A DNA stretch of 64,000 nucleotides from a bacterium. Lineage in GTDB: Bacteria; Vulcanimicrobiota; JABDET01. The notes beneath the pieces are model-generated. The model saw only the letters and a program-made list of their open reading frames with translations, made no database searches and had not been told where the DNA came from. Position numbers and translations under genes: made by a program. Position 1 is the stretch's first letter. Each line of letters opens with the position of its first letter. This document shows positions 6,913 through 62,304 of this stretch, piece by piece. The DNA lies in assembly GCA_021800275.1 (NCBI GenBank), contig JAJYZB010000003.1, positions 680 through 64,679 of the forward strand, read 5' to 3'.

Positions 6913-8370
6913 ATGGCAGTAAAAGTCTTCATCCCAACCCCCCTCCGCCCCTACACCAATCAAAAAGATGTGGTAGAAGTGGAAGGCAGAACGGTTGCAG
7001 AAGCTCTCCAAAAACTAACCGCTTCTTATCAGGATTTAAAAAAACATCTTTATACAGAGGATGGGAAGCTCAGGAGTTTTGTCAATATTTATGTCAACGA
7101 TCAGGACATCCGACATCTTAAAAAAGAAAAAACTCCATTATCAGGAGAAGAAACGGTTCATATTGTCCCTTCGATTGCTGGAGGCTCTCAAAATTCAAAT
7201 GGACATAACAGCGCTGCTCAAACCCTAGAAACCCCGCTTTCTAAAGATGAAATGCAGCGGTACTCACGCCATTTAATCATGCCTGAAGTCGGAATTGAAG
7301 GTCAAACAAAACTAAAAATGGCAAAGGTTTTGTGTATTGGAGCAGGAGGACTTGGGGCTCCTGTAAGCCTTTATTTAGCAGCAGCCGGGGTTGGAACAAT
7401 TGGACTGGTTGACTTTGATCAAGTGGATTACACGAACCTCCAAAGACAGATCCTTTACAGCACTTCAGATGTTGGAATCCCTAAACTAAAAGCAGCTGAA
7501 GAACGATTAAAAAAATTAAATTCAGAAATCCTAATTAACACGCATGAAACAAAGCTGACCTCTGAAAATGCCCTGAAACTCTTCCGTGATTATGATGTCA
7601 TTGTGGATGGAACAGATAATTTTCCCACACGGTATCTGGTCAATGATGCTTGTGTGTTAACTGGAAAGCCAAATGTGTATGGAAGCATTTTCAGATTTGA
7701 AGGTCAGGTCTCAGTTTTTGATGCTGAAAAAGGTCCCTGCTACCGCTGCCTTTATTCAGAACCTCCTCCCCCAGGACTTGTTCCATCCTGCGCAGAAGGA
7801 GGAGTTCTTGGAGTTCTGCCTGGAGTCATTGGATCTTTCCAGGCCCTCGAATCTCTAAAATTAATTTTAGGAATTGGAGAACCTCTTATTGGCAGATTAA
7901 TTTTGTTTGATGGTCTAAATTTTAAAATCCGAGAGATGAAATTGAAAAAAGATCCAAACTGTCCTATTTGCGGAAAAGAGCCAAAAATTAAAAAACTCAT
8001 TGATTATGACCAATTCTGCGGAATAAAAAAGGAGGAAGAAAAAATGGAGTATGAAATTGACATTGAATTAGAGGAATTTAAACATCTTAGAGATCAGAAA
8101 GTCGATCACATTTTAATAGATGTGAGAGAAAAATGGGAATGGGAGTTATGCTGTTTCCCTGAAGCCTTACACATTCCTCTTGGGGAACTCCAGCGCCGAA
8201 TGAATGAACTGGACAAATCTAAATTCATCATCGTTCACTGCAAATCTGGGGGAAGGAGCGCCAGAGCAGTTGAACAGATGAAAAAAGCAGGGTTCGCAAA
8301 AGTTAAAAACTTAAAAGGTGGAATCAATGGGTGGGCTGAGAAGATCGATCCATCTGTTCCCAAATATTAA
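6913..8370 (+). CDS. sulfur-carrier (MoaD/ThiS-like beta-grasp, ending GlyGly) fused to MoeB/ThiF-type E1 adenylyltransferase and a C-terminal rhodanese domain (MoeZ-like)
   Basis: N-terminal ~91 aa ends ...VHIVPSIAGG (GG terminus of sulfur carriers); E1 nucleotide-binding GAGGLGAP and zinc motifs CYRC...CPIC; rhodanese active-site loop VHCKSGGRS; AGGAGG RBS before the ATG at 6913. Confidence 0.85.
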   Translation: MAVKVFIPTPLRPYTNQKDVVEVEGRTVAEALQKLTASYQDLKKHLYTEDGKLRSFVNIYVNDQDIRHLKKEKTPLSGEETVHIVPSIAGGSQNSNGHNSAAQTLETPLSKDEMQRYSRHLIMPEVGIEGQTKLKMAKVLCIGAGGLGAPVSLYLAAAGVGTIGLVDFDQVDYTNLQRQILYSTSDVGIPKLKAAEERLKKLNSEILINTHETKLTSENALKLFRDYDVIVDGTDNFPTRYLVNDACVLTGKPNVYGSIFRFEGQVSVFDAEKGPCYRCLYSEPPPPGLVPSCAEGGVLGVLPGVIGSFQALESLKLILGIGEPLIGRLILFDGLNFKIREMKLKKDPNCPICGKEPKIKKLIDYDQFCGIKKEEEKMEYEIDIELEEFKHLRDQKVDHILIDVREKWEWELCCFPEALHIPLGELQRRMNELDKSKFIIVHCKSGGRSARAVEQMKKAGFAKVKNLKGGINGWAEKIDPSVPKY

Positions 8371-23371: not shown

Positions 23372-23683
23372 TTAAGCTTTTGCCTTTTCAAGCCTTTCTT
23401 GTGGAAGACCAATGGGCAAAACTTTGTCCAGATCAGTATGGGGCCTTGGTATCACGTGAACTGCTACCAATTCCCCGATTTTCCGCGCGGCTGCCGCTCC
23501 TGCATCTGTTGCTGCTCGAACTGCTGCCACATCCCCGCGCACAATGGCTGTAACAAGTCCTCCTCCAATTTTCTCATAGGCGGCGAGTTTTACATTAGCC
23601 GCCTTGCACATGGCATCTGAAGCTTCAACCATGGCAACCAATCCTCGCGTTTCGATCATTCCTAAAGCTTCATAAGTGGTCAT
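23372..23683 (-). CDS. bacterial microcompartment shell protein, BMC-H (PduA/EutM type)
   Basis: Near-canonical BMC-H sequence [86 protein letters not shown]; ATG at 23683 with AGGAGG 5 nt upstream (track start at 23734 is a TTG extension). Confidence 0.85.
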
Positions 23684-23841
23684 TTTGTCCTCCTTTAAAT
23701 TCGGCTCTTTAAAGAACCTTACATCCTCTTTCAACCGCAGCCGCTTCAGCAGGTTGTCGTTTAAATGATAGCTATTCTCGGCATTTTCGGCAGAACTGCC
23801 TTTTCCTCCTTTATCTTTGCAGCAGGCGTTATTCCCATATT

Positions 23842-33368: not shown

Positions 33369-33391
33369 AATCGGCTCTGTGGGAGCCGATT
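33369..33391 (-). terminator. stable hairpin (9-bp stem AAUCGGCUC/GAGCCGAUU, 5-nt loop) overlapping the fliA stop codon; no U-tract
   Basis: Perfect inverted repeat read directly from the sequence at the 3' end of the flagellar operon; the missing U-run makes its role as an intrinsic terminator uncertain. Confidence 0.35.
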
Positions 33392-34136
33392 ATGACATAA
33401 AACTTCCTTCTAACAATGTCCCAATGACTTCATCGCTTCCAACATGAAGCGCATCCCGCAGTTTTCTTATAATCCTCACATGCAGCTGTGAAACACGCTG
33501 CTTAGAAATACTCATTTCAGAAGCAATCTCTTCAAAATTTTTCCCTTCAAAATAATAAAGAGTGATCAGGGTATTTTCCCGCTCAGGAAGAGTATCAATC
33601 GCATTTTTTAAAAGTTCCCTTTCTTCTTCAAATTCAAATTCTCTCACGGGCTCTTTTACATTCTTATCTTCAATTGTATCTATTAAACTTCTTTCTTCAT
33701 TTGGATCAAGGCTGGCAGGTTGATCCAGGGAGAGCAAATATTGAGTTCCTAAATCTGCGATTAACTCATAGACTTCCTGGGCAGAAATTTGAAGTTCAGA
33801 AGCCAGCTCTTCTTTAGTCCCTTCTCTGCCGTGAGCCACATGGAACTCTTCCATGGCTTTTCGAAGATCTCTGGTTTTAGTTCTTTTACGCTCAGGCATC
33901 CAATCCATAGACCTGAGTCCATTTAAAATGGCGCCGCGAATAACAGGGGTTGCATAAGTTTCAAACTTGACCCCTCTTTCAGGATCAAACTGTTCAGCAG
34001 CTTTCATTAAACCCATAACTCCATCACCCACAAGGTCGTCAAAATCAACCTGTTTTAAATTCTTTACAATCTTTGCGGCGACCTGACGGACAAGGGTAAA
34101 ATGCTTCTCAATAAGGGTATCTCGCTGTTCTTCCAT
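33390..34136 (-). CDS. fliA: flagellar RNA polymerase sigma factor (sigma-28, FliA/WhiG family)
   Basis: Sigma-70 region 2 (FDPERGVKFETYATPVIRGAILNGLR) and region 4 HTH (ISKQRVSQLHVRIIRKLR); terminal gene of a flagellar cluster. Confidence 0.8.
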   Translation of the reverse strand: MEEQRDTLIEKHFTLVRQVAAKIVKNLKQVDFDDLVGDGVMGLMKAAEQFDPERGVKFETYATPVIRGAILNGLRSMDWMPERKRTKTRDLRKAMEEFHVAHGREGTKEELASELQISAQEVYELIADLGTQYLLSLDQPASLDPNEERSLIDTIEDKNVKEPVREFEFEEERELLKNAIDTLPERENTLITLYYFEGKNFEEIASEMSISKQRVSQLHVRIIRKLRDALHVGSDEVIGTLLEGSFMS

Positions 34137-38209: not shown

Positions 38210-39211
38210 TTGAAAGTTCTAAACCTGCTTCCTGAAAGCATAGGTGACTTTCTATTGGTTTCTCCCAGTTTAAATTCTGTGGAACAACATTTTAAAAATG
38301 AAGAAATCATCTGGTGGATTCCTGAATCCCTTTCTGAAGTTTCTAAATTGATCTCCTCAAAAGCAGTGAAAAAATTCTTTTCCTTTGAGAAAAATGGAAC
38401 TTTCAAAAATAAAGAAATTTTTAAAAGCTTAAAATCCAGCAGTCGAACTATTGATATCACCCTATGCTTTCCCCCAGCCGTGAAATATTATCGATTAGCG
38501 CGCAAAATAGGAACCCGAATAAGAGCGGGATACAGCCATGAAGACATGCTGATTTCCAGAGTAGTCAGCAAAATTTATTTAACCCATCACTGGATCTGTC
38601 CTTCCAACTCGAAAATCCATGAACTAGAAGCTTATGGACAAATATTAACTCTCTTGAAAATCCCCTTTATCCCCTCATTTCCTGAGCTGACCCTTTCAGA
38701 GAACTCTTTCGTCTGGTCTAAAAACTGGCTTCAAAAAGCCTCTCAGTCTTCCTCACCCAAAATTATCTCTGTTCATTTAGGATCACGATGGGTTGAAAAT
38801 CCTCTTATTCATCTCCGTCAATTCTTGAAAAACCACGCTGATTTCTTCCTCCTCATTCTATTCTCCCAGCAGGAAGAGAAAAAAGCAAGGGGCTGGATCA
38901 CTGAATTCGAAAGATTTTCTGAAACTGGAATGAAAAAAATCTTGATTCCTGGAGTTATTTCTCTTGAACAGTACGCCGCTTTTTTAAAATTGAGCCAGAT
39001 GTTAATAGCAGTGGATGGAGGACCTGTTCATCTGGCTTCCGCTTTAAAAACACCTATCCTTGTTTTTTACCCTGACGATCAATTTGAATTCAGAGCTGCG
39101 AAATGGCATCCCTGGGGGACCTCTTATAAAGCTGCCCCTCTTACAAAAAAAGAGATAAACTCTCTTTCAAAAACGGTTCAAGAGTTTGCTTTCCTATCTG
39201 AAACCACCTAA
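38210..39211 (+). CDS. glycosyltransferase family 9 (ADP-heptose:LPS heptosyltransferase-like)
   Basis: N-terminal MKVLNLLPESIGDFLLVSPSL (GT9 KIL.I...GD.L..P. pattern) and C-terminal VDGGPVHLASALKTPILVFY (ND.G.MHLAAA.G.P). Confidence 0.65.
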   Translation: MKVLNLLPESIGDFLLVSPSLNSVEQHFKNEEIIWWIPESLSEVSKLISSKAVKKFFSFEKNGTFKNKEIFKSLKSSSRTIDITLCFPPAVKYYRLARKIGTRIRAGYSHEDMLISRVVSKIYLTHHWICPSNSKIHELEAYGQILTLLKIPFIPSFPELTLSENSFVWSKNWLQKASQSSSPKIISVHLGSRWVENPLIHLRQFLKNHADFFLLILFSQQEEKKARGWITEFERFSETGMKKILIPGVISLEQYAAFLKLSQMLIAVDGGPVHLASALKTPILVFYPDDQFEFRAAKWHPWGTSYKAAPLTKKEINSLSKTVQEFAFLSETT

Positions 39212-39224
39212 ACTTCTCTATTCA

Positions 39225-39360
39225 TGGGGATCTGCGGGCATCCTAGAGAAGCCTTCCGCAAACAAGCCCGCACAGCCTAACTAATAGGCATAGTCTAACC
39301 AGTAGGATCAGGTGCTGCTTCAGCGCCACCCTTCAGCAAATCCGGTGAACTTTCATGAGT
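39225..39360. ncRNA. GC-rich island (about 55% GC in a ~38% GC genome) with several potential stems; candidate structured RNA of unassigned class
   Basis: Composition stands out from the flanks; stems such as UGCGGGC...GCCCGCA (39238-39244 / 39265-39271) and CCUA...UAGG; partial weak resemblances to SRP-RNA and TPP elements were not convincing. Confidence 0.2.
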
Positions 39361-39436
39361 AACTCGAACAAAATTTATCCTTAATTTTTAAAGTGATTAG
39401 GAGGCTGTATTCAGTTTTCGTCTAAAAGTTATACGA

Positions 39437-42070
39437 GTGCCCTTAACACCAGAAGAAAAACTCCCAAAAAGGAAAGAAAATTTAAGAACCACAACCCAGA
39501 ACCTTAAAGGGGAGAAATTTTTTATTGTTATCAATGAAGAAACAGAAGTTTTCTATCAATTAAGAGAAATCGAGTTTGAAATCTTCTCTAATCTAGACGG
39601 AGAAACCTCGCTCGAAAAAATTAAAGAAAAAATCGAAACCCTTCATCCTAACCTTGAACTTCCACTAGAGTACTTAACTGCCTTTATTCAAGATTTGCAA
39701 AAAAAAGGGCTTTTGGAAGGGGAACAATGGGTTTCTAGAAAGCAGAACAAAATAAACAGAGGGAGCCTGTTTTATCTCAGGTTTCCTCTGTTAAATCCCG
39801 AAAAAATGTTGAAAAAAACGCTCCCGATTGTGTCTCCACTTTTTGAGCCTATCTCTGTTTATACCGGCACTTTCTTAATTTTTTTCCTTTTTGTTTTTTT
39901 GTTTCTACAGCAGCATTCTCTTATATCAGAAATGAGTATTCTGCTCCACGGATGGGGTATTCTACTCTTTTATTTCTCTTTTTTAATCGTGGCTTTTGTG
40001 CATGAGATGGGCCATGCTTTAACCTGCTCATATTACAGCGGAAAAGTGAAAGAAATGGGGTTCATGCTGATTTACTTTGAACCCGCTTTTTACACCAATG
40101 TTTCAGACGCTTATCTTTTCCCCGACAAAAAGCACAGAATGTATGTTGGGCTTGCAGGACTATATTTCCAGTTTGTTTTCGCTTTTTTTGTCGCTCTCAT
40201 CTGGTATTTTTCAATTCCAGGGAGCTTTGTTTCTCTTTTCTGTGTTTCTATTTTAAGCATTTGCAGTTTTACAGCCCTCTGGAATTTAAACCCCTTAATT
40301 AAGCTGGATGGGTATTATGTTTTAAATGATTTTTTAGAAGTGGTCAATTTAAGATCTCGATCTTTCCAGCATTTTAACCTTTTAATTCAAGGAAAAATTC
40401 TAGGTCTGAAAGAATCGGCAGAAGAATTAAAAAAAATTCCTCGACGATTGGATAAAATCTACTTCTGGTACGGAGTTCTAGGAGTTGGATTCACGTCTTT
40501 AACTCTGTTATTTATTCTCGTTTTTCTGTTTCAATTTGCAGCCAGATCTCTGGCAGGACTTGGAGTTCTGCTCGTTCTTGGAGGCGCTGGATTCGGAATC
40601 TGGAAGTGGTATAAAAAGGCTTTATCAGGATGGACGCAAGTGGTTCAAAAGATCAAAGAAGATATGGATGTCAAGATGAAATTAAAGTCAAAAGCTCAAA
40701 AGCTTGGAACAGGGGTTCTTATTCTCTTCGTCTTAGGACTCATCCCAACAAGAGCTGAAGTGGCGGGACCCTGTACCGTTGAACCCTCTGTGAAAAGAGC
40801 TGTAACTCCACTTGAATCTGGAATCATCGTAAAAATATTTCAAAAAAACGGAGGACTCATCAAAAAGGGAGAGATTTTTGCAGAACTCGATGATTTTCCC
40901 CTAAAACAAAAGCTTGCCAGTTTAATCATTGAAAAAAGGATAGATAAAAATCGTCTCTCTTATTTAAAAGCAGTATATGGTTCTCATTTAACCGACGCAG
41001 ATGAAACCTTATATCAAGCTGAACTGGCATCAAAAGCTCATTCTCTTCTTTCAAAAGAAACGCTGCTTGAATCTAAACATTCTTTAGAAGAATCAAAAGA
41101 ACAGTATCTAAAATCGAAAACCATTTATGACCACTTAAAAAAAGATTGGGCAAAATATCAAAAAGGTACTCTGCCAAACTCAGCAGCTGAAATTGAACAG
41201 GAAATAAAATCGGCTCAAGCTCGACTAAAATTAGCGAGAAGCACTTGGGAAACATACTCCAGACTGGCAAAAACAAAACTGATCTCCTCTCGAAAATTAT
41301 TGAAAGAGGAAAGCCTCTTTCAGGAAGATAAAAACCGAGTCATAAGGCTTCAAAAGCAGTTTGACCTGGTTAAAAGAGACTTCGTTCAGAATTATCAGAT
41401 CGCTTACGAGCAAAAACAAGCCTCTTTAAAAGCCTATCAAGCTGAACTGGAATCATACCGAAAAACTCGAAAAAAAATCCTTGAAATTGAACCTGAACAG
41501 CTCCAAAAGAATCTGAAATTCATGCAAAAAAATTTTTATTACGCTAAAGGGGAATCCGCTGAAATTAAAGTGATCGAAAACAAACAATCCTATATTGAAG
41601 CCCAAATAAAAGAAATTTTAAAAAAAATAAAGAGAACCAAGGTCATCAGTCCTATCACAGGAGTTCTGATCACCCCACATCTTAAAGAATGGGAAGGTAA
41701 AATGGTGAGAAAGGGAGAGCCATTTGCCTGGGTTTACCAACCCGGAAAAAACGTCTTTGACATCCAAGTCAATCAAATGGACATTTTAGAAATCCCTAAA
41801 TGGAATCCAAGGGGGAATGATGTTTCTATCAGACTTCTAGCTCTTCCAGGGAAATTGTTTTCTGGAAAAGTCAGCAGGATTGTGCCTCAAAGTATAAAGA
41901 AGCATGAAAGGAATTACACAGTAGAGGTAAAGACAGAGGACCCTCACCATATCCTTCTTCCAGGAATGGTAGGGACAGCTAAAATTTATGGACGCTATCG
42001 TCCACTATTATGGCAGTGGATTCGAATCCCTGTAGAATATCTTTACTGGAAACTCTGGAGCCTTTTTTGA
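39437..42070 (+). CDS. tri-domain membrane protein: N-terminal PqqD-like RRE (RiPP recognition element), M50/site-2-protease-like polytopic metalloprotease (HExxH), C-terminal HlyD-type periplasmic adaptor
   Basis: RRE-like FFIVINEETEVFYQLREIEFEIFSNLDGETSLEKIKEKIETLHPN...LTAFIQDLQKKGLL; HExxH FVHEMGHAL within a multi-TM region; MFP lipoyl hairpin GPCTVEP...RAVTPLESGIIVKIFQKNGGLIKKGEIFAELDD, long coiled coil, beta-barrel VISPITGVLITP. The start is a GTG 33 nt after an AGGAGG, so it is uncertain. Confidence 0.6.
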   Translation: MPLTPEEKLPKRKENLRTTTQNLKGEKFFIVINEETEVFYQLREIEFEIFSNLDGETSLEKIKEKIETLHPNLELPLEYLTAFIQDLQKKGLLEGEQWVSRKQNKINRGSLFYLRFPLLNPEKMLKKTLPIVSPLFEPISVYTGTFLIFFLFVFLFLQQHSLISEMSILLHGWGILLFYFSFLIVAFVHEMGHALTCSYYSGKVKEMGFMLIYFEPAFYTNVSDAYLFPDKKHRMYVGLAGLYFQFVFAFFVALIWYFSIPGSFVSLFCVSILSICSFTALWNLNPLIKLDGYYVLNDFLEVVNLRSRSFQHFNLLIQGKILGLKESAEELKKIPRRLDKIYFWYGVLGVGFTSLTLLFILVFLFQFAARSLAGLGVLLVLGGAGFGIWKWYKKALSGWTQVVQKIKEDMDVKMKLKSKAQKLGTGVLILFVLGLIPTRAEVAGPCTVEPSVKRAVTPLESGIIVKIFQKNGGLIKKGEIFAELDDFPLKQKLASLIIEKRIDKNRLSYLKAVYGSHLTDADETLYQAELASKAHSLLSKETLLESKHSLEESKEQYLKSKTIYDHLKKDWAKYQKGTLPNSAAEIEQEIKSAQARLKLARSTWETYSRLAKTKLISSRKLLKEESLFQEDKNRVIRLQKQFDLVKRDFVQNYQIAYEQKQASLKAYQAELESYRKTRKKILEIEPEQLQKNLKFMQKNFYYAKGESAEIKVIENKQSYIEAQIKEILKKIKRTKVISPITGVLITPHLKEWEGKMVRKGEPFAWVYQPGKNVFDIQVNQMDILEIPKWNPRGNDVSIRLLALPGKLFSGKVSRIVPQSIKKHERNYTVEVKTEDPHHILLPGMVGTAKIYGRYRPLLWQWIRIPVEYLYWKLWSLF

Positions 42071-42111
42071 TAAAATAAATAAAATGATAGGCAGAGGAGG
42101 CAGCAGCAGAA

Positions 42112-42564
42112 ATGCTTTTTAAGGCAGTGACAGTAGAAACAGACGACAAAAATCTGCTGAACCAAGTTTTTAAACTTCGACACACCGTATTTGTGAATGA
42201 ACAAGGGGTTCCACCAGAACTGGAGAGGGATGAATTTGACAAATCCGCCTATCATGCCGCTGTGATTCAGAATGGAGAAGTCATCGCAGCAGGAAGATTG
42301 GTAATTAAAGGGGTTTCAGGAAAGATCGGGAGAATGGCTGTCAAAAAAGAATGGAGAGGAAAAGGGATTGGCTCTCTAATCTTGCAGAAACTTCTGCAAA
42401 TCGGAAAAGAAAAAAAAATAACCTGCTTCTATCTCCATGCTCAGCTGCAAGCAGTCCCTTTTTACCGCAAACACGGCTTTGCTCCTGTTGGCGAAATTTT
42501 CGAAGAAGCAGGGATCCTTCACCAGGAAATGACGCTGGAACCCATGATACTTCGGCAGCATTAA
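42112..42564 (+). CDS. GNAT family N-acetyltransferase
   Basis: Acetyl-CoA binding motif A (MAVKKEWRGKGIGSLIL) and motif B (YLHAQLQAVPFYRKHGF); GAGGAGG RBS. Confidence 0.75.
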   Translation: MLFKAVTVETDDKNLLNQVFKLRHTVFVNEQGVPPELERDEFDKSAYHAAVIQNGEVIAAGRLVIKGVSGKIGRMAVKKEWRGKGIGSLILQKLLQIGKEKKITCFYLHAQLQAVPFYRKHGFAPVGEIFEEAGILHQEMTLEPMILRQH

Positions 42565-42816
42565 AACTGCCAGCAGTATTATTATGGAAGGATGCTGCAG
42601 AGAAACCTGCATCTCCTCCGATCCCGGATCTATCAAGTTCGCACAGTCAAGCCAATGCCCTAATTGACAGGTTGCAGCAACAGGAACTCACTAAAGCTCA
42701 ACGAATTATAAAACACAAAAATCAATGAGCGGCAAATAAAAAACTGACTTATACAAGAGCAGATTTTTTGAGTAAAATTCCACATTCAGCAGAAGAATAA
42801 ATCCACAGGAGGCTTA

Positions 42817-44781
42817 TTGATGGAGATTAAGCCAGGAGATATTATCCAGAGATCTTTTCGCATCGTTAATCTCCTGGATGACTATTTATTTTTCCAGACC
42901 TACCAGATTGCTGACGTCAGCAGAAATATAAAAGAGTCCAATACAGGTTTACTGATGTTAACCATTAAACCTGAATTAATGCTCCCTGCTTTTTGGAAAG
43001 AAACCAGTTGGTGGCTGTCTTCTTCTGATTACCCCTTTCCTTCTGTTTTAAAGCACTGGGAAGAAGAAGAAACTATTTTTATTGTTTTAAAACAATCCGT
43101 TCAGGCTTCTTTCTTGAACATCATCGAATCAGGGGACATTCCAAGGGGCTACATCCCGCGAATCATCCCTCAGCTCATTAAAATTTTTTCTTCCCTTTCT
43201 TCAGTTGGAGCAAGCCTTCCAGATTACTATTCACTTTCCAGAAGAATCACATATGCATCTCAAGGAGAGGTCCGTCTGCTGCCTGTTATCCTGTATCAAA
43301 CTTATTTTAAGCAGACAAATATTCCCGATCCAATTATTCCCAATGACAGTGCATTTCCTCCCCAATATTACATTCAAAAATTAGCGGCGTTTATTCATAT
43401 TCTTTTAACAAATAAGTTCCCCCATAATGATGCAGAACTGCTGTCAGGCGATTTATTATTGGAACCCCCTATCGAAAAACTCCTGCAGCCTGCTCTTAAA
43501 GGAAAAATCGCAACATTTGAAGAGTTTGAAAAGCAAATCCCTTTGAGCTTGAAGGGGGAAGAAAAAATTTACCCTGTCTCTCTTCCTGATGCAGATACAC
43601 CGCCTGAAGCCGTGAAAAAACCTTCAAAACAATCCTGGACAGCGTTCCTAAAATCAGGGAAAACACAATTTAAAAAAATACACTCTCTCATCAAAGAAAA
43701 AATGAATGAATCATCTCGTGTTCAGCCTGCTAAAAAAATCAGAACTGATCAGCTTTTGGTTTTCACTCGACAGCTATTTTTTCTTTTAAAAAATGGCATT
43801 CCAATAAGGACCGGTCTGGACGCGATACAAAATACGCAAACTGATAAAAGAATTCGAAAAACCGTCATGGAAATAGAAAAAAAATTAGAAGAAGGCCTCC
43901 CCTTATCTGAGGCGATCATCAAATGCGGCACCACGTTCCCTCTTTCATACACAGCTTTAATTCAGACAGGAGAAGCAGGAGGATTTCTGCCCGAAGTTTT
44001 AGAGAGAATTTCGATCTTTCTCGAAAAAGAATTGCGAGTGAAGCGTGAGCTAAAATCTGTTATGATTTACCCTGCAGTCATGCTTGTTACTTCTTGTCTA
44101 ATCACCTTAGCCATCGTTTTATGGGTTTTCCCTGAGATCTTTTCGATGTTCAATGGGTTCAAAATGAAACTTCCCATTGAAACGAAAATAATGATAGCCT
44201 TTGTGGCAGTTATTACCAGCCCGTACTCATGGATAGCAATTTTCCTGCTGATCACCATTTTTATCATTACTTTCCCCATGTACAGCAAGAATGAGGAATT
44301 CCAGTCCCATCTTGACCAAATTAAGCTGCACCTTCCAACGATTGGAAAATTTTATGTGAAATTAGTGGTCACCGATTTCTGCAAAAATTTTGCAACCCTT
44401 TATTCCAGCGGAATTCCCACGCTGTCATGTTTAAAAATTTTAGCGGCTACCGCTGAAAATAAAATGGTGTCTAAAGAAATTTACGATATCATCGCTTCCC
44501 TTGTCTCAGGAGAGTCTCTTGCCGGGGCATTTAAGGAAACTAAAATTTTCCCCCGTCTGCTTGGAGACATGGTGGCAGTTGGGGAGGAAAGCGGGGAATT
44601 GGCAAAAACCTTAAATAAACTGGCGGATTATTTTGATGCGATGCTTGAAGATGGCTTCGAAAAAATTGGAACTTTTTTTGAAATATTCTCCATTCTATTT
44701 TTAGGAGGACTTGTCGGAGTTTTTGCTGTTTCCATCTTTATTCCCCTTTACCAGATGATCGGAAACCTCGGAAAAAAATGA
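42817..44781 (+). CDS. GspF/PilC-family platform protein (two T2SSF repeats) with an about 300-aa N-terminal cytoplasmic domain of unknown family
   Basis: C-terminal about 350 aa contain two T2SSF units (LVFTRQLFFLLKNGIPIRTGLDAI...; FCKNFATLYSSGIPTLSCLKILAATAENK...VAVGEESGELAKTLNKLADYF) with 3 TM segments; residues 1-300 have no recognisable motif; AGGAGG RBS. Confidence 0.65.
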   Translation: MMEIKPGDIIQRSFRIVNLLDDYLFFQTYQIADVSRNIKESNTGLLMLTIKPELMLPAFWKETSWWLSSSDYPFPSVLKHWEEEETIFIVLKQSVQASFLNIIESGDIPRGYIPRIIPQLIKIFSSLSSVGASLPDYYSLSRRITYASQGEVRLLPVILYQTYFKQTNIPDPIIPNDSAFPPQYYIQKLAAFIHILLTNKFPHNDAELLSGDLLLEPPIEKLLQPALKGKIATFEEFEKQIPLSLKGEEKIYPVSLPDADTPPEAVKKPSKQSWTAFLKSGKTQFKKIHSLIKEKMNESSRVQPAKKIRTDQLLVFTRQLFFLLKNGIPIRTGLDAIQNTQTDKRIRKTVMEIEKKLEEGLPLSEAIIKCGTTFPLSYTALIQTGEAGGFLPEVLERISIFLEKELRVKRELKSVMIYPAVMLVTSCLITLAIVLWVFPEIFSMFNGFKMKLPIETKIMIAFVAVITSPYSWIAIFLLITIFIITFPMYSKNEEFQSHLDQIKLHLPTIGKFYVKLVVTDFCKNFATLYSSGIPTLSCLKILAATAENKMVSKEIYDIIASLVSGESLAGAFKETKIFPRLLGDMVAVGEESGELAKTLNKLADYFDAMLEDGFEKIGTFFEIFSILFLGGLVGVFAVSIFIPLYQMIGNLGKK

Positions 44782-48454: not shown

Positions 48455-48685
48455 ATGGAACAGGTTATTACACTCCATATTGAAAAATTGCCTGAAGGGG
48501 TTTATCTGGCTACTTCCGATGAACTTCAAGGCCTTGTAGCTCAAGGACGTACTATTTGGGAAACATTGGAAATTGCTAGAGATGTTGCTCGTAAACTGAT
48601 GGAAGAGCAGAATAGCCAAAAGATACACCCCACCTTAAAAATAGTTGAAAATCGCTTTGATTATCCTCTAGTACTCGAAACTTAA
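48455..48685 (+). CDS. hicB: HicB family antitoxin
   Basis: TLHIEKLPEGVYLATSDELQGLVAQGRTIWETLEIARDVARKLME matches the HicB/UPF0150 RNase-H-like fold signature; 2-nt gap to hicA. Confidence 0.65.
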   Translation: MEQVITLHIEKLPEGVYLATSDELQGLVAQGRTIWETLEIARDVARKLMEEQNSQKIHPTLKIVENRFDYPLVLET

Positions 48686-48687
48686 AG

Positions 48688-48912
48688 GTGGGAAGACTAT
48701 CAGGATTTCATTACAGCGATATTATTAAACGCCTGCGAAAGTTAGGGTTTTCTTTCAGAAGACAGGCGGCTGGAAGTCATGAGATTTGGCACAGCATATC
48801 AAGTGGGCGCTATACCACTATTCCACACCATCCTGGAGAAATGCCAGAAGGGACACTGCGAGCCATTTTAAAACAAGCTGGCATTGACGCAGAAAAATTT
48901 TTAAAAGCTTGA
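48688..48912 (+). CDS. hicA: HicA family mRNA interferase toxin
   Basis: IIKRLRKLGFSFRRQAAGSHEIWHSISSGRYTTIPHHPGEMPEGTLRAILKQAGI matches the HicA/YcfA pattern (GSH...H....V.H.....GTL..ILKQAG). Confidence 0.7.
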   Translation: MGRLSGFHYSDIIKRLRKLGFSFRRQAAGSHEIWHSISSGRYTTIPHHPGEMPEGTLRAILKQAGIDAEKFLKA

Positions 48913-59381: not shown

Positions 59382-60689
59382 TCAGTTTTTCAATCTTCCC
59401 AGGAGAGATGCTCTCTCCCTAGACAGCACAATCAGATGCTCTGTTTTCATTCGGTTGTCAGAAATTCCAGTGGCGGGATTAGTTTTGTATAAAAACATGG
59501 AACGGGAAACAATGGTGTCAACCAGAGTGATTTCATGTTTCCAGCCCAAAGAAGTGAAATGCTCGCGGAAAATCTGGCTCATTGGAATGGCATTTCCTCT
59601 GACATTGGCAGGTCCCACAAAAAGCAGCAGATATTTTCTAATTTTTTCCTGGAGAGAATTCAAAATTCCAAAGACACCGTAAAAATACCGCTTAAACATT
59701 TTTTGCAGATGAGCCTCATCAATTCCATTTAAACATTCATCATACGTTGGAGAATGAATCTGGACAACGGGCACATCCCTATAAGGAATCTCTTTTTTCC
59801 CCAAATCCTTGATGAATTCTTCAGAATATCCCATCCAGAAAAGATCCATTTTGGTGGAACGAATATACTCTTGCGCTTGCAGATAAGGAGGAGACGTGAT
59901 GAGAATGTCAGACTCTTTCTCAGGGCTGGCTGCCAGCCCATCAACTGCTGATTGAATGACGCAGTCAACAGGTTGAGGATTTAAACTCTGATATTCTTTC
60001 AATTTCAATAAAATACTTAAATAGCCATTCCAGATCATTTTGTAAAAAATATTTTTCCAATCTTTCTCCAGCAGGGTTTCTATCCGTTTATCTGCCATTG
60101 GGGACCGAGACAATTTTAATCGTTTCTCGTCATTAAAAGAAAAATAATGGGTAGTCTTTAAAAGAGGAATAAGCAGCAGATTCTTAAGTCTCTGATCTTT
60201 CAACTGATGAAAATAGCCCCAGGCTTTTGAGAGCAGATCCAGACACTCTTCTGGATGCCAATAATTTAATGATCCCCAGTCAGGAACATAAGGTTTTGAA
60301 TTTTCCACCGCTTTTTTTAAATCAATCTTTTCTTCTTCTTGAGGGCTCATGACAGCAGCTGAATGGAAAAATTTTAAGAGAGGGTTTAAATCCCAGAGTT
60401 CATAAGGATTTCCGTAAATTCTTGAGACAATCCCGGTGGTTCCATATCCTGCAAATGGATCCATAATCCTCATTCCAGAAACCCCATACGTCTTCAAAGC
60501 ATAAGCAATAACTTGAGGTATGAATTTTGCGGGATACCTGTACAATCCGAAGGTAGCATAACTGGTAGAAGGAATCTCTGGGGAGAGGCTTCTAAAAAGG
60601 ACAGGAACTTCTTTAAAAGCAGGGTTCTCTAATAAAATCTCCTTTTGAGCAGGCTGCTGGGAAAAAGCCATTTGCGCTACTTTCATCAT
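59382..60689 (-). CDS. DNA methyltransferase (alpha-class amino-MTase; SPPY motif suggests N4-cytosine or N6-adenine)
   Basis: Motif I IMDPFAGYGTTGIV and motif IV ILITSPPYLQAQEY separated by a long putative TRD. Confidence 0.65.
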   Translation of the reverse strand: MMKVAQMAFSQQPAQKEILLENPAFKEVPVLFRSLSPEIPSTSYATFGLYRYPAKFIPQVIAYALKTYGVSGMRIMDPFAGYGTTGIVSRIYGNPYELWDLNPLLKFFHSAAVMSPQEEEKIDLKKAVENSKPYVPDWGSLNYWHPEECLDLLSKAWGYFHQLKDQRLKNLLLIPLLKTTHYFSFNDEKRLKLSRSPMADKRIETLLEKDWKNIFYKMIWNGYLSILLKLKEYQSLNPQPVDCVIQSAVDGLAASPEKESDILITSPPYLQAQEYIRSTKMDLFWMGYSEEFIKDLGKKEIPYRDVPVVQIHSPTYDECLNGIDEAHLQKMFKRYFYGVFGILNSLQEKIRKYLLLFVGPANVRGNAIPMSQIFREHFTSLGWKHEITLVDTIVSRSMFLYKTNPATGISDNRMKTEHLIVLSRERASLLGRLKN

Positions 60690-61269: not shown

Positions 61270-62304
61270 ATGAGAAAAAAAGAAGAATTTTTAAGATTTT
61301 TTTCGATGGCTTTAAGCGCTCTGCTTTCCGCAGGAGTCCCACTTTTAAAAAGCCTTCAGATTCTGGCAGCTCAGCAGGAAAGCGCAGCGTTTAAAAAAAC
61401 GCTGGAAGGGGTGGCAGAAAAAATCTCCCATGGAGAATCCCTGTCCAGAAGCATGGAACAGTATCCTTCCTATTTTCCTGGATTAATCACAGGACTTATC
61501 CTGATAGGAGAAAAAACAGGAACTCTTCCTCAAAATTTACAAAAAATAGCGAAAATCTGCGAAAAAAACCTGACACTGAAACTGAAAATGATTTCCGCTC
61601 TCACCTATCCTTTAATTTTATTTGGATTAACCATCCTTGGAACCATTTTATTAATAAAAGTTTTTGTCCCCCAGTTTGTTCCTGTTTTTGCGCAGAATCA
61701 AGGAGCCCTTCCATACCCGACCAGATTTCTGCTTTTTATTTCAAATCTTTTCTCTTCCTCTTTTTTCTGGATTTTTCTGCTCCTGCTGCTGGCATTTTCT
61801 ATTTTTCTGTACTCTTTGATTCAAGATTACAAAATTAATTTAGGCGCGATCCTGCTGTTTCTGCCTTTCATTCGAGAAATTGTTAAAAAAGGAACAGCCT
61901 GTCAAATAACCAGCACTCTATCTATCGCTTATTCTGCTGGTCTTCCTCTTTCAAAAGCTCTTGAACTGACAGCAGACATTCTAGATCATCCAACCTTTCA
62001 GGAGCTGATTCAGAACGCTCGATTGACTTTAATCAGAGGAGAAAAGCTTTCAAGCTTCTTTCTTGAAAATTCAAATTTGATCCCTTCTTATTTAGGACAC
62101 ATGATGGCTGCTGCTGAACAAACAGGAAGAGTGGATATTCTGATGACAAAGTGCACTAAAATTTTAGAAGAAGATCTCAGCTATCTTATGGACCAATTTT
62201 CCGCTCTTCTAGAACCTGGAATTTTAATTTTTATGGGTGGAATTGTAACTTTTATTATGCTGGCTGTTTTTCTCCCCATGTATGGGATACTTCATTCCAT
62301 CTAA
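61270..62304 (+). CDS. GspF/PilC/TadC-family secretion-system platform protein (compact, two T2SSF repeats)
   Basis: T2SSF repeat signatures (LSALLSAGVPLLKSLQILA...; STLSIAYSAGLPLSKALELTADIL...MMAAAEQTGRVD) with 3 TM segments. Confidence 0.6.
   Translation: MRKKEEFLRFFSMALSALLSAGVPLLKSLQILAAQQESAAFKKTLEGVAEKISHGESLSRSMEQYPSYFPGLITGLILIGEKTGTLPQNLQKIAKICEKNLTLKLKMISALTYPLILFGLTILGTILLIKVFVPQFVPVFAQNQGALPYPTRFLLFISNLFSSSFFWIFLLLLLAFSIFLYSLIQDYKINLGAILLFLPFIREIVKKGTACQITSTLSIAYSAGLPLSKALELTADILDHPTFQELIQNARLTLIRGEKLSSFFLENSNLIPSYLGHMMAAAEQTGRVDILMTKCTKILEEDLSYLMDQFSALLEPGILIFMGGIVTFIMLAVFLPMYGILHSI

Follow-up and report, generated by a model that had tools for sequence, protein, structure and literature searches.

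What does a protein do that joins a leader-binding domain of peptide biosynthesis, an intramembrane protease and a periplasmic export adaptor in one chain? We addressed this question for an 877-amino-acid (aa) protein encoded in a 64,000-nucleotide (nt) stretch of DNA, hereafter the window, from a bacterium of the Vulcanimicrobiota lineage JABDET01 (contig JAJYZB010000003.1, positions 680 to 64,679 of the forward strand; assembly GCA_021800275.1). An earlier note, made from the sequence alone, had proposed that this gene and two genes downstream form a candidate peptide maturation and export module. All three open reading frames (ORFs) were found where the note had placed them, on the + strand, at 39437-42070 (877 aa), 42112-42564 (150 aa) and 42817-44781 (654 aa). 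Together with a gene at 38210-39211 they form a four-gene + strand block flanked by a divergent flagellar operon (fliK, flhB-like, flgF, flgG, fliA) and by convergent pheST. For the window's copy of the 877-aa protein, the best reading is an intramembrane peptidase that is guided by leaders and joined to an export adaptor, a HlyD-fused variant of the MpaP/DapP kind. On balance, we lean towards the view that it is an inner-membrane protein that recognises, cuts and hands over ribosomal peptides.

The gene and its parts are laid out as follows.

39437-42070, + strand: tri-domain gene, 877 aa, GTG start
39476-39721, + strand: cytoplasmic RRE or PqqD-like winged-helix domain, residues ~14-95
39773-40606, + strand: site-2 or M50 intramembrane zinc protease domain, residues ~113-390, about six transmembrane (TM) helices
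40712-42070, + strand: TM7 anchor (residues 426-444) and EmrA/HlyD-type periplasmic adaptor (residues 445-877), matched by HlyD profiles

Profiles, an AlphaFold model and fold matches agree that the 877-aa protein is composed of a recognition element (RRE) for peptides that are synthesized ribosomally and modified after translation (RiPPs), a site-2 (M50) protease, the seventh TM segment and an EmrA/HlyD-type adaptor. Its homologues comprise a subclade to which the window's copy belongs (P0002-P0009, 38-71% identity) and a main family mostly 24-31% identical to it over the full length. In the AlphaFold2 model of residues 1-450, built with a 92-sequence alignment (predicted local distance difference test (pLDDT) 91.5, predicted TM-score 0.84), the RRE consists of strands 16-23, 26-33 and 38-43 and helices 44-51, 59-69 and 77-89, as assigned by DSSP (pLDDT 90-98). 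Foldseek matched it in the PDB to TbiB1 with bound leader (5V1U/5V1V), lasso B1 (6JX3), CteB and TglHI, with target TM-scores of 0.66-0.73 and root-mean-square deviations (rmsd) of 2.9-3.9 Å over ~90 aa for TbiB1 and lasso B1. TbiB1 and FusE-type B1 proteins are the best structural matches to residues ~14-95 (TM-score ~0.7, rmsd ~3 Å); unlike the 877-aa protein, they are stand-alone and hand the leader to the cysteine protease B2, and are not fused to a membrane metalloprotease. Residues F47, I49, F50, L53, D54, G55, T57, L87, L92 and L93 of the RRE are invariant in the subclade, where the domain is as conserved as the remaining protein, and several positions among the first 95 residues are conserved across alignments of 25 and of 92 homologues.

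The protease domain carries both sequence signatures of its family. The HExxH motif lies in FVHEMGHAL (residues 189-193), with H189, E190 and H193 invariant in the 25 and the 92 homologues. The NxxPxxxxDG motif (residues 283-292), which provides the third zinc ligand, is also present: P286, D291 and G292 are invariant in both alignments, and N283 is invariant among the 25 homologues and retained in at least 90% of the larger set. The two motifs sit at the cytoplasmic ends of TM2 and TM4. The top Foldseek match of the domain was the Methanocaldococcus jannaschii site-2 protease 3B4R (probability 1.0, E=0.01). Among NCBIfam models, the daptide protease daptide_HExxH (NF041824), which models RRE and protease together, aligned residues 26-394 to model positions 15-371 of 379 (E=3.6e-58), and the YydH/LiaK epipeptide protease model aligned residues 130-312 (E=6e-17; 62 bits against a cutoff of 225). 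Many homologues bear a precomputed match to the Pfam M50 family (PF02163), and PqqD (PF05402) is recorded on several main-family homologues, for example P0039-P0041, P0064 and P0086.

The C-terminal half has the layout of a membrane fusion protein, with two lipoyl halves, a helical hairpin of ~245 aa and a beta-barrel. Pfam HlyD_3 scored above its cutoff (27.3 against 22.2 bits), Biotin_lipoyl_2 matched residues 461-485, HlyD_D23 fell just below its cutoff (residues 691-845), and NCBIfam RND_mfp and type_I_hlyD also matched this half. EmrA (4TKO) was found at 1.5e-5 with the single sequence and at 1.9e-29 with a family profile, which also matched HlyD in the HlyB/D complex (8DCK/7SGR), MacA and LipC. 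A hydropathy scan gave about seven TM segments and placed the N-terminus and the K/R-rich loops in the cytoplasm and residues 445-877 in the periplasm; because the number of TM segments is odd, the adaptor would lie on the opposite side of the membrane from the RRE. The contig of one relative encodes Omp85/POTRA and OmpH, which is consistent with a diderm envelope that would suit a periplasmic adaptor. Like HlyD, EmrA, MacA and CvaA, the adaptor combines a lipoyl domain, a long helical hairpin and a beta-barrel behind a single TM anchor; unlike them, it is covalently fused to a protease and not partnered with an ABC, MFS or RND pump, and no pump or TolC-like gene is linked to it. The three-part composition that the earlier note had recognised is therefore borne out by NF041824, the invariant motifs, the AlphaFold2 model, Foldseek and the EmrA profile. 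Of the Pfam searches that it had suggested, HlyD_3 came out above cutoff, while PqqD gave no match and M50 missed its cutoff by 0.3 bits.

The note had also called the architecture unusual. Homology searching yielded 301 clusters at E<=1e-5; almost all are 680-950 aa long and most 730-880 aa, and their precomputed Pfam annotation combines adaptor domains with M50 and/or PqqD; relatives are named 'putative peptide zinc metalloprotease', 'PqqD family peptide modification chaperone' or 'efflux RND transporter periplasmic adaptor subunit' in the databases. We confirmed at least 553 tri-domain loci in species-representative genomes and at least 552 in metagenomes, from Acidobacteriota, Gemmatimonadota, Zixibacteria, Ignavibacteria, Planctomycetota, Verrucomicrobiota, Armatimonadota, Bdellovibrionota, Burkholderiales and others. 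The fusion is thus a common one, present in at least 550 species genomes of many phyla. Among the matches listed in the genome and metagenome scans, all were main-family loci and none added to the subclade. No paper on the HlyD-fused enzymes or on the peptide motif described below was found in the literature covered, which left out much subscription material; the RRE-M50-HlyD family is large, widespread and apparently unstudied.

In the main family, small peptide genes accompany the tri-domain gene. At loci L006 and L008 it lies downstream of arrays of 38-69-aa ORFs whose products share the leader (V/I)EELE(E/Q)RIAP(D/S/G), followed by Gly/Asn/Pro/Ser-rich or very short tails. Typical members are found a short way downstream of 1-9 tandem genes, on the same strand, for peptides of 40-90 aa, with cores that are Gly/Asn/Pro-rich and not Thr-terminated. 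A regular-expression search detected such ELEERIAP-type peptides in 44 of 89 loci. Of the 90 main-family loci flanked by 1.5 kb or more on each side, 44 contained at least one peptide gene according to a hidden Markov model (HMM) built from 134 leader segments. All 96 peptides that the HMM found are encoded on the strand of the tri-domain gene; 80 lie upstream of it, and the median distance is 712 nt. No NCBIfam family describes these peptides, the sole match being a 13-bit hit to Amm_Lyn_leader. Examples of the tandem genes, among many others, are the following.

L006, 6900-7920: tandem ELEERIAP peptide genes
L008, 775-1650 and 7094-7778: tandem ELEERIAP peptide genes
L014, 583-2840: tandem ELEERIAP peptide genes
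L097, 8971-9870: tandem ELEERIAP peptide genes

Near-identical cores occur across phyla; GNPGNNNPPLNNTNNPGNEGTGGQVSTG, for instance, is found in Acidobacteriota, Burkholderiales, Gemmatimonadales and Planctomycetota loci. Other genes also recur beside the main-family gene, namely a sigma54-dependent response regulator (37 loci), a GAF-domain protein with a HlyD-like second adaptor (19), a 326-aa protein that lacks a Pfam match (17) and a metallo-beta-lactamase-fold protein (11). Examples of these neighbours are as follows.

L006, 10439-12019: recurrent main-family neighbour
L028, 3707-5569: recurrent main-family neighbour
L062, 6150-7118: recurrent main-family neighbour

These peptides bring the family close to a described system, and the earlier note's statement that the combination could not be matched to a characterised one no longer holds, as the first 400 aa match an RRE-peptidase of the MpaP/DapP type. 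The class-defining protease of daptides is an intramembrane site-2 protease that bears an RRE at its N-terminus, daptide precursors carry the leader motif ELExMEAP, and their clusters are described from Actinomycetota and Bacillota (bioRxiv 10.1101/2023.03.08.531785). The ~400 N-terminal aa of the 877-aa protein are homologous to MpaP/DapP and have the same order of RRE and M50 protease; the main-family leader ELEERIAP is close to ELExMEAP, and tandem precursor genes stand beside the protease gene in both. There are also differences. The 877-aa protein adds the C-terminal adaptor of ~430 aa and scores under the NF041824 cutoff, and DapB/C/D/M genes, an ABC (ATP-binding cassette) transporter and hydrophobic cores ending in Thr are missing. 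The hosts belong to diderm-type phyla, whereas daptide hosts are Actinomycetota and Bacillota, and the window's copy has GT9 and GNAT partners in place of a nearby precursor. Because of the homology to the daptide peptidase and of the leader-bearing peptide genes beside about half of the main family, we assign a probable role in leader recognition and cleavage to the family, and to this extent the role suggested in the earlier note is supported.

Within the subclade the gene keeps different company. The neighbours in the window, the first of which the earlier note did not mention, are these.

38210-39211, + strand: GT9-like (heptosyltransferase-family) glycosyltransferase, 333 aa, Pfam Glyco_transf_9
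42112-42564, + strand: ElaA/YjcF-type GNAT acetyltransferase, 150 aa, 41 nt past the tri-domain stop codon

The corresponding loci of the six relatives, with the identity of the tri-domain protein to the window's copy, are arranged as follows.

L003 (71%): GT9 upstream; GNAT and then pheT downstream, lacking the GspF gene
L004 (47%): GT9 upstream, overlapping; GNAT downstream, abutting the stop codon
L005 (50%): GT9 upstream, overlapping; GNAT downstream, overlapping
L009 (40%): GT9 upstream; beta-propeller protein downstream
L170 (40%): GT9 upstream, overlapping; 75-aa ORF on the opposite strand downstream, then a convergent pseudopilin operon
L171 (38%): LanB-like dehydratase-family gene upstream; a second LanB-like gene and two FAD oxidases nearby

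By tblastn, GT9 orthologues (41-59% identity) lie directly upstream in five of the six (L003, L004, L005, L009 and L170) and in none of 162 main-family loci; GT9 is the best-conserved neighbour of the tri-domain gene in the subclade. GNAT orthologues (55-65% identity) are present in L003, L004 and L005 and absent from L009, L170 and L171. The GT9 gene overlaps the start codon of the tri-domain gene in L004, L005 and L170, and GT9 and, in the closest members, the GNAT are read as translationally coupled partners. This linkage is not simple synteny, because the outer flanks of the loci differ. The GT9 protein matches Glyco_transf_9 (PF01075) at 30.2 bits against a cutoff of 22, over residues 243-317 only, and is a member of the family by this fold region. 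It falls far below the cutoffs of the heptosyltransferase equivalog models (TIGR02193, 44 against 185), and its PDB sequence matches all have E>=0.019, with lipopolysaccharide (LPS) heptosyltransferases as the best, weak ones. The GNAT matches Acetyltransf_10 at 67.5 bits (cutoff 23.6, E=1.4e-18), in keeping with the earlier annotation, and has SACOL1063 (5JQ4), YjcF (1Q2Y) and ElaA as relatives in the PDB. RiPP pathways use GNATs for N-terminal acetylation after leader removal, as in microviridin and goadsporin, and GT9-family enzymes are known to glycosylate proteins (TibC/Aah). In the gap between the GT9 and tri-domain genes of L003 lies a 94-aa ORF (1116-1400) with a weak DUF6922 match (E=2e-4) that the window lacks.

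The most divergent subclade member, P0009 (locus L171), is encoded between two ~840-aa LanB-like (Lant_dehydr_N) genes, with two FAD_binding_4 oxidases. These surroundings look like a RiPP-type cluster; no precursor was found in it. Its LanB-like and oxidase genes are placed as follows.

L171, 367-2877: part of the LanB-like/oxidase cluster
L171, 6234-8774: part of the LanB-like/oxidase cluster
L171, 8762-11937: part of the LanB-like/oxidase cluster

How such a protein might work can be outlined, although the way of export, what powers it and what GT9 and GNAT contribute are inferred. The RRE would bind the peptide leader in the cytoplasm, and the protease domain would cut it off at the inner membrane face. 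The core peptide might then exit through the protease domain itself, as proposed for EpeP, or via an unlinked pump, and the oligomerised adaptor would guide it through the periplasm to an outer-membrane channel whose gene lies elsewhere. EpeP, an M50 protease, offers a precedent for a pump-less route because it is thought both to cleave and to export its peptide; TglG and TmoG (pearlin) are further M50 proteases of RiPP pathways and act as carboxypeptidases on scaffold peptides (PMC10885120). EpeP/YydH and TglG/TmoG are likewise membrane-embedded M50 metalloproteases that mature ribosomal peptides, but have neither an RRE nor an adaptor fusion. A functional analogy is provided by the colicin V system CvaAB-TolC, which unites leader recognition, cleavage and envelope-spanning export in one membrane machine (PMC8277102). 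The analogy goes no further, since CvaAB-TolC uses an unrelated C39 cysteine protease in place of an M50 zinc protease, recognises a GG-type and not an ELEERIAP-type leader, and is driven by ATP, whereas the tri-domain protein has no evident energy module. The substrate of the window's copy would come from a gene at another site of the genome, and glycosylation and/or N-acetylation may modify it. A substrate encoded in trans is plausible because half of the main-family loci lack a detectable peptide in cis and the RRE is strongly conserved in the subclade.

Several observations weigh against this account. Pfam PqqD had no match on the 877-aa protein at E<=0.1, the M50 match is partial (residues 178-259) and reaches 26.9 bits against a cutoff of 27.2, and the NF041824 score of 197.5 bits is below the cutoff of 300. 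A leader-type peptide is absent from the 64-kb window and from ±10 kb of the six relatives' loci: the highest score of the leader HMM in the window and subclade loci was 9.5 bits, compared with 30-38 bits for positive controls, a six-frame regular-expression search for ELEERIAP-type precursors found none in the window, and no small-ORF family is common to the subclade loci. The annotated ORFs of the window include, as the earlier note had observed, no ABC exporter, no secretion ATPase (GspE) and no precursor, and also no inner-membrane pump or outer-membrane channel gene; prepilin and pseudopilin genes were not found among them either. Nor does any ABC exporter, pump or TolC gene recur beside the 162 main-family loci. 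The export step, which has no linked pump, energy source or channel, is one that we can purely infer. The putative tailoring roles of GT9 and GNAT are suggested solely by gene linkage, and the GNAT is of a generic type. Even in daptides the peptidase role has been assigned and not reconstituted, and the role proposed here is likewise predicted from sequence.

As an alternative, the subclade might have been re-purposed for an envelope or glycoconjugate task. GT9 would then be a heptosyltransferase of the LPS-core type, the protease-adaptor would serve envelope biogenesis or regulated intramembrane proteolysis, and the RRE would be a generic protein-binding module. We regard this as unlikely, though it deserves serious consideration. 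LPS heptosyltransferases are the best-known members of the GT9 family and also the best matches, weak as they are, of the protein encoded here; but the protein stays far under every heptosyltransferase equivalog cutoff. No subclade locus has a precursor in cis, and GT9 never accompanies the peptide-linked main family. Against this, the leader HMM detects no peptide in cis at about half of the main-family loci either, the RRE positions that are strongly conserved in the subclade are common to the peptide-linked main family, and P0009 lies within a LanB-type cluster. Site-2 proteases classically cut membrane-anchored regulators, yet no sigma or anti-sigma gene is coupled to the tri-domain gene, the FliA gene at 33390-34136 being part of the divergent flagellar operon. 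In favour of re-purposing, finally, three relatives adjoin an operon with pseudopilins resembling those of type II secretion systems (T2SS), and the window holds an orthologue of its T2SSF gene 16.5 kb downstream, an association that also bears on the next alternative.

On a reading that starts from the earlier note, the tri-domain protein, the GNAT and the 654-aa protein, whose C-terminal half resembles GspF, might form a single machine for peptide maturation and export; a T2SS-like platform would then replace the ABC transporter. The genes concerned are the following.

42817-44781, + strand: pseudokinase-GspF fusion, 654 aa; kinase-like region ~1-250, linker, two T2SSF domains ~316-650
42817-43566, + strand: pseudokinase domain, the N-terminal ~250 aa of the 654-aa protein
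61270-62304, + strand: T2SSF gene of ordinary length, 344 aa, two Pfam T2SSF domains

The GspF-like half is as the note had described it, with two T2SSF domains (PF00482, E=1.7e-51), TM segments at 420-438, 470-488 and 626-644, and a GspF (TIGR02120) score of 258.7 against a cutoff of 424. The three genes are co-directional in the window, no other transporter was seen among its annotated ORFs, and L005, L009 and L170 have T2SSF-family genes not far from their tri-domain genes. The T2SSF genes of these relatives are, however, orthologues not of the 654-aa gene but of the gene at 61270-62304: its product is 50%, 38% and 30% identical to those of L005, L170 and L009 and 26% identical to the 654-aa protein, and they run opposite to the tri-domain gene, in RR-BTAD/pseudopilin/TPR operons beside it. 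Their recurrence indicates loose regional synteny in the lineage and not a functional trio. The 654-aa gene itself is missing from L003, where pheT directly follows the GNAT gene, and from the other relatives; by tblastn its N-extension was absent from L003-L005, L009 and L170 and confined to the species of the window. A gap of 252 nt lies between the 654-aa gene and the GNAT gene, the window contains neither a GspE ATPase nor a pseudopilin gene, and the relatives of the fusion adjoin DUF7305 or pseudopilin genes, not M50-HlyD genes. The idea of a single three-gene machine is largely refuted by this missing co-conservation, and we consider it improbable; the pseudokinase-GspF protein is a species-specific neighbour and not a member of the module, and the conserved partners of the tri-domain gene are GT9 (five of six loci) and the GNAT (three of six).

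That the locus is instead a degenerate daptide or epipeptide cluster with an MpaP/DapP- or YydH/EpeP-type protease is very improbable: daptide_HExxH and YydH/LiaK are its best NCBIfam matches, but the scores stay far below the curated cutoffs (197 where 300 is required, and 62 where 225 is), no ELExMEAP or C-terminal-Thr precursors were found by regular expression or leader HMM in the window and subclade loci, no DapB/C/D/M genes, radical-SAM epimerase or ABC transporter are adjacent, and daptide clusters, described from Actinomycetota and Bacillota, have no HlyD fusion. Membership in the daptide class was accordingly rejected on the cutoff score and the missing tailoring genes; the class-III aminotransferases of the window lie 6-33 kb away in housekeeping contexts.

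Although not part of the module, the 654-aa protein is distinctive in its own right. The earlier note had left its N-extension of ~300 aa unassigned, and indeed no Pfam match and no hit in a word-indexed homology search was obtained for it. Exhaustive HMMER searching of 1.84e9 representatives returned only 11 relatives (clusters), at 23-40% and mostly 25-30% identity. Eight of ten that were scanned are full fusions with two T2SSF domains (609-706 aa), the others being a truncated 410-aa protein and a 199-aa protein with the N-domain only. In an AlphaFold2 model (pLDDT 77.6) the N-domain adopts a protein-kinase fold, for which Foldseek listed over 1800 kinase matches, the Rv3910 pseudokinase among them. 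Because the glycine-rich loop (GxGxxG, apart from one off-position match) and the HRD and DFG motifs are missing from all 11 aligned family sequences, the domain is a pseudokinase; like that of Rv3910 (MviN), it combines a kinase fold with the loss of the catalytic motifs. As in GspF/PilC, the C-terminal half is a full platform of two T2SSF domains with three TM segments, but the pseudokinase fusion is rare, and no GspE or pseudopilin gene adjoins it in the window. For the biology of secretion and of pili, the fusion is a minor oddity of its own. Beside the T2SSF gene at 61270-62304, where no pseudopilin or ATPase gene adjoins, the next gene encodes a GH13-like glycosidase.

The earlier note had further drawn attention to a GC-rich island in front of the tri-domain gene and to two very small ORFs, one inside the island and one at 42593-42676, as possible precursors.

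39225-39360, no strand: moderately GC-rich stretch in the 225-nt gap between the GT9 and tri-domain genes

The stretch has a GC content of 52.9%, compared with 40.2±5% for the window, which places it among the richest 0.8% of segments; 13 further stretches equal or exceed it. It could not be aligned with the corresponding gap of L003, the relative with 71% identity. A small RNA was considered and rejected: Rfam gave no match with gathering thresholds on the whole window or in E-value mode on 39100-39500, no tRNAs were found, and the stretch folds no better than shuffled sequences on either strand (z -1.5 and +0.7). Matches to a sigma54 promoter occur in the window at chance level, and none falls in the GT9/tri-domain gap. 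The two mini-ORFs were rejected as precursors, as they are not conserved in L003 and the subclade loci share no small-ORF family. Neither they nor the GC stretch have support, and all three are dropped from the model.

Some further features of the window were recorded in passing. Its GyrA has its nearest named matches, at only 62% identity, in Armatimonadota and Bacillota MAGs; the lineage is uncultured and branches deeply. A 485-aa ORF at 6913-8370 combines ThiS, ThiF and rhodanese domains, a fusion of sulfur carrier and activating enzyme. A BMC-domain microcompartment shell protein is encoded at 23372-23734 beside two small unassigned ORFs, with an aldehyde dehydrogenase and a class-III aminotransferase gene 7-9 kb away. 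Adjacent ORFs of 76 and 74 aa at 48455-48912 resemble, by eye, an antitoxin/toxin pair of the HicB/HicA type. The segment 54944-60689 is a restriction-modification-like block whose syntenic genes in L003 carry Z1/ResIII, RE_BsaWI and N6_N4_Mtase domains; within it lies a 435-aa ORF (59382-60689) with no Pfam match.

RRE-fused intramembrane proteases have been recognised recently, through the daptides of Gram-positive bacteria, and the HlyD-fused branch is much larger. For experiments, the window's copy is a weaker entry than the main-family loci because its substrate is not in view. Going beyond the reading that we favour, the fusion of RRE, site-2 protease and adaptor might be a self-contained cleave-and-export machine of diderms that matures and secretes a large, so far undescribed class of ELEERIAP peptides independently of a dedicated ABC transporter, and the GT9/GNAT subclade might be a branch for a glycosylated and/or N-acetylated peptide encoded in trans; we put this forward tentatively, as a rather doubtful extension. 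If true, the subclade of the window would represent a new kind of glyco-RiPP pathway that uses a GT9-family enzyme. The family as a whole points to an unexplored group of secreted peptides and, possibly, to a new coupling of leader removal to transit across the envelope.

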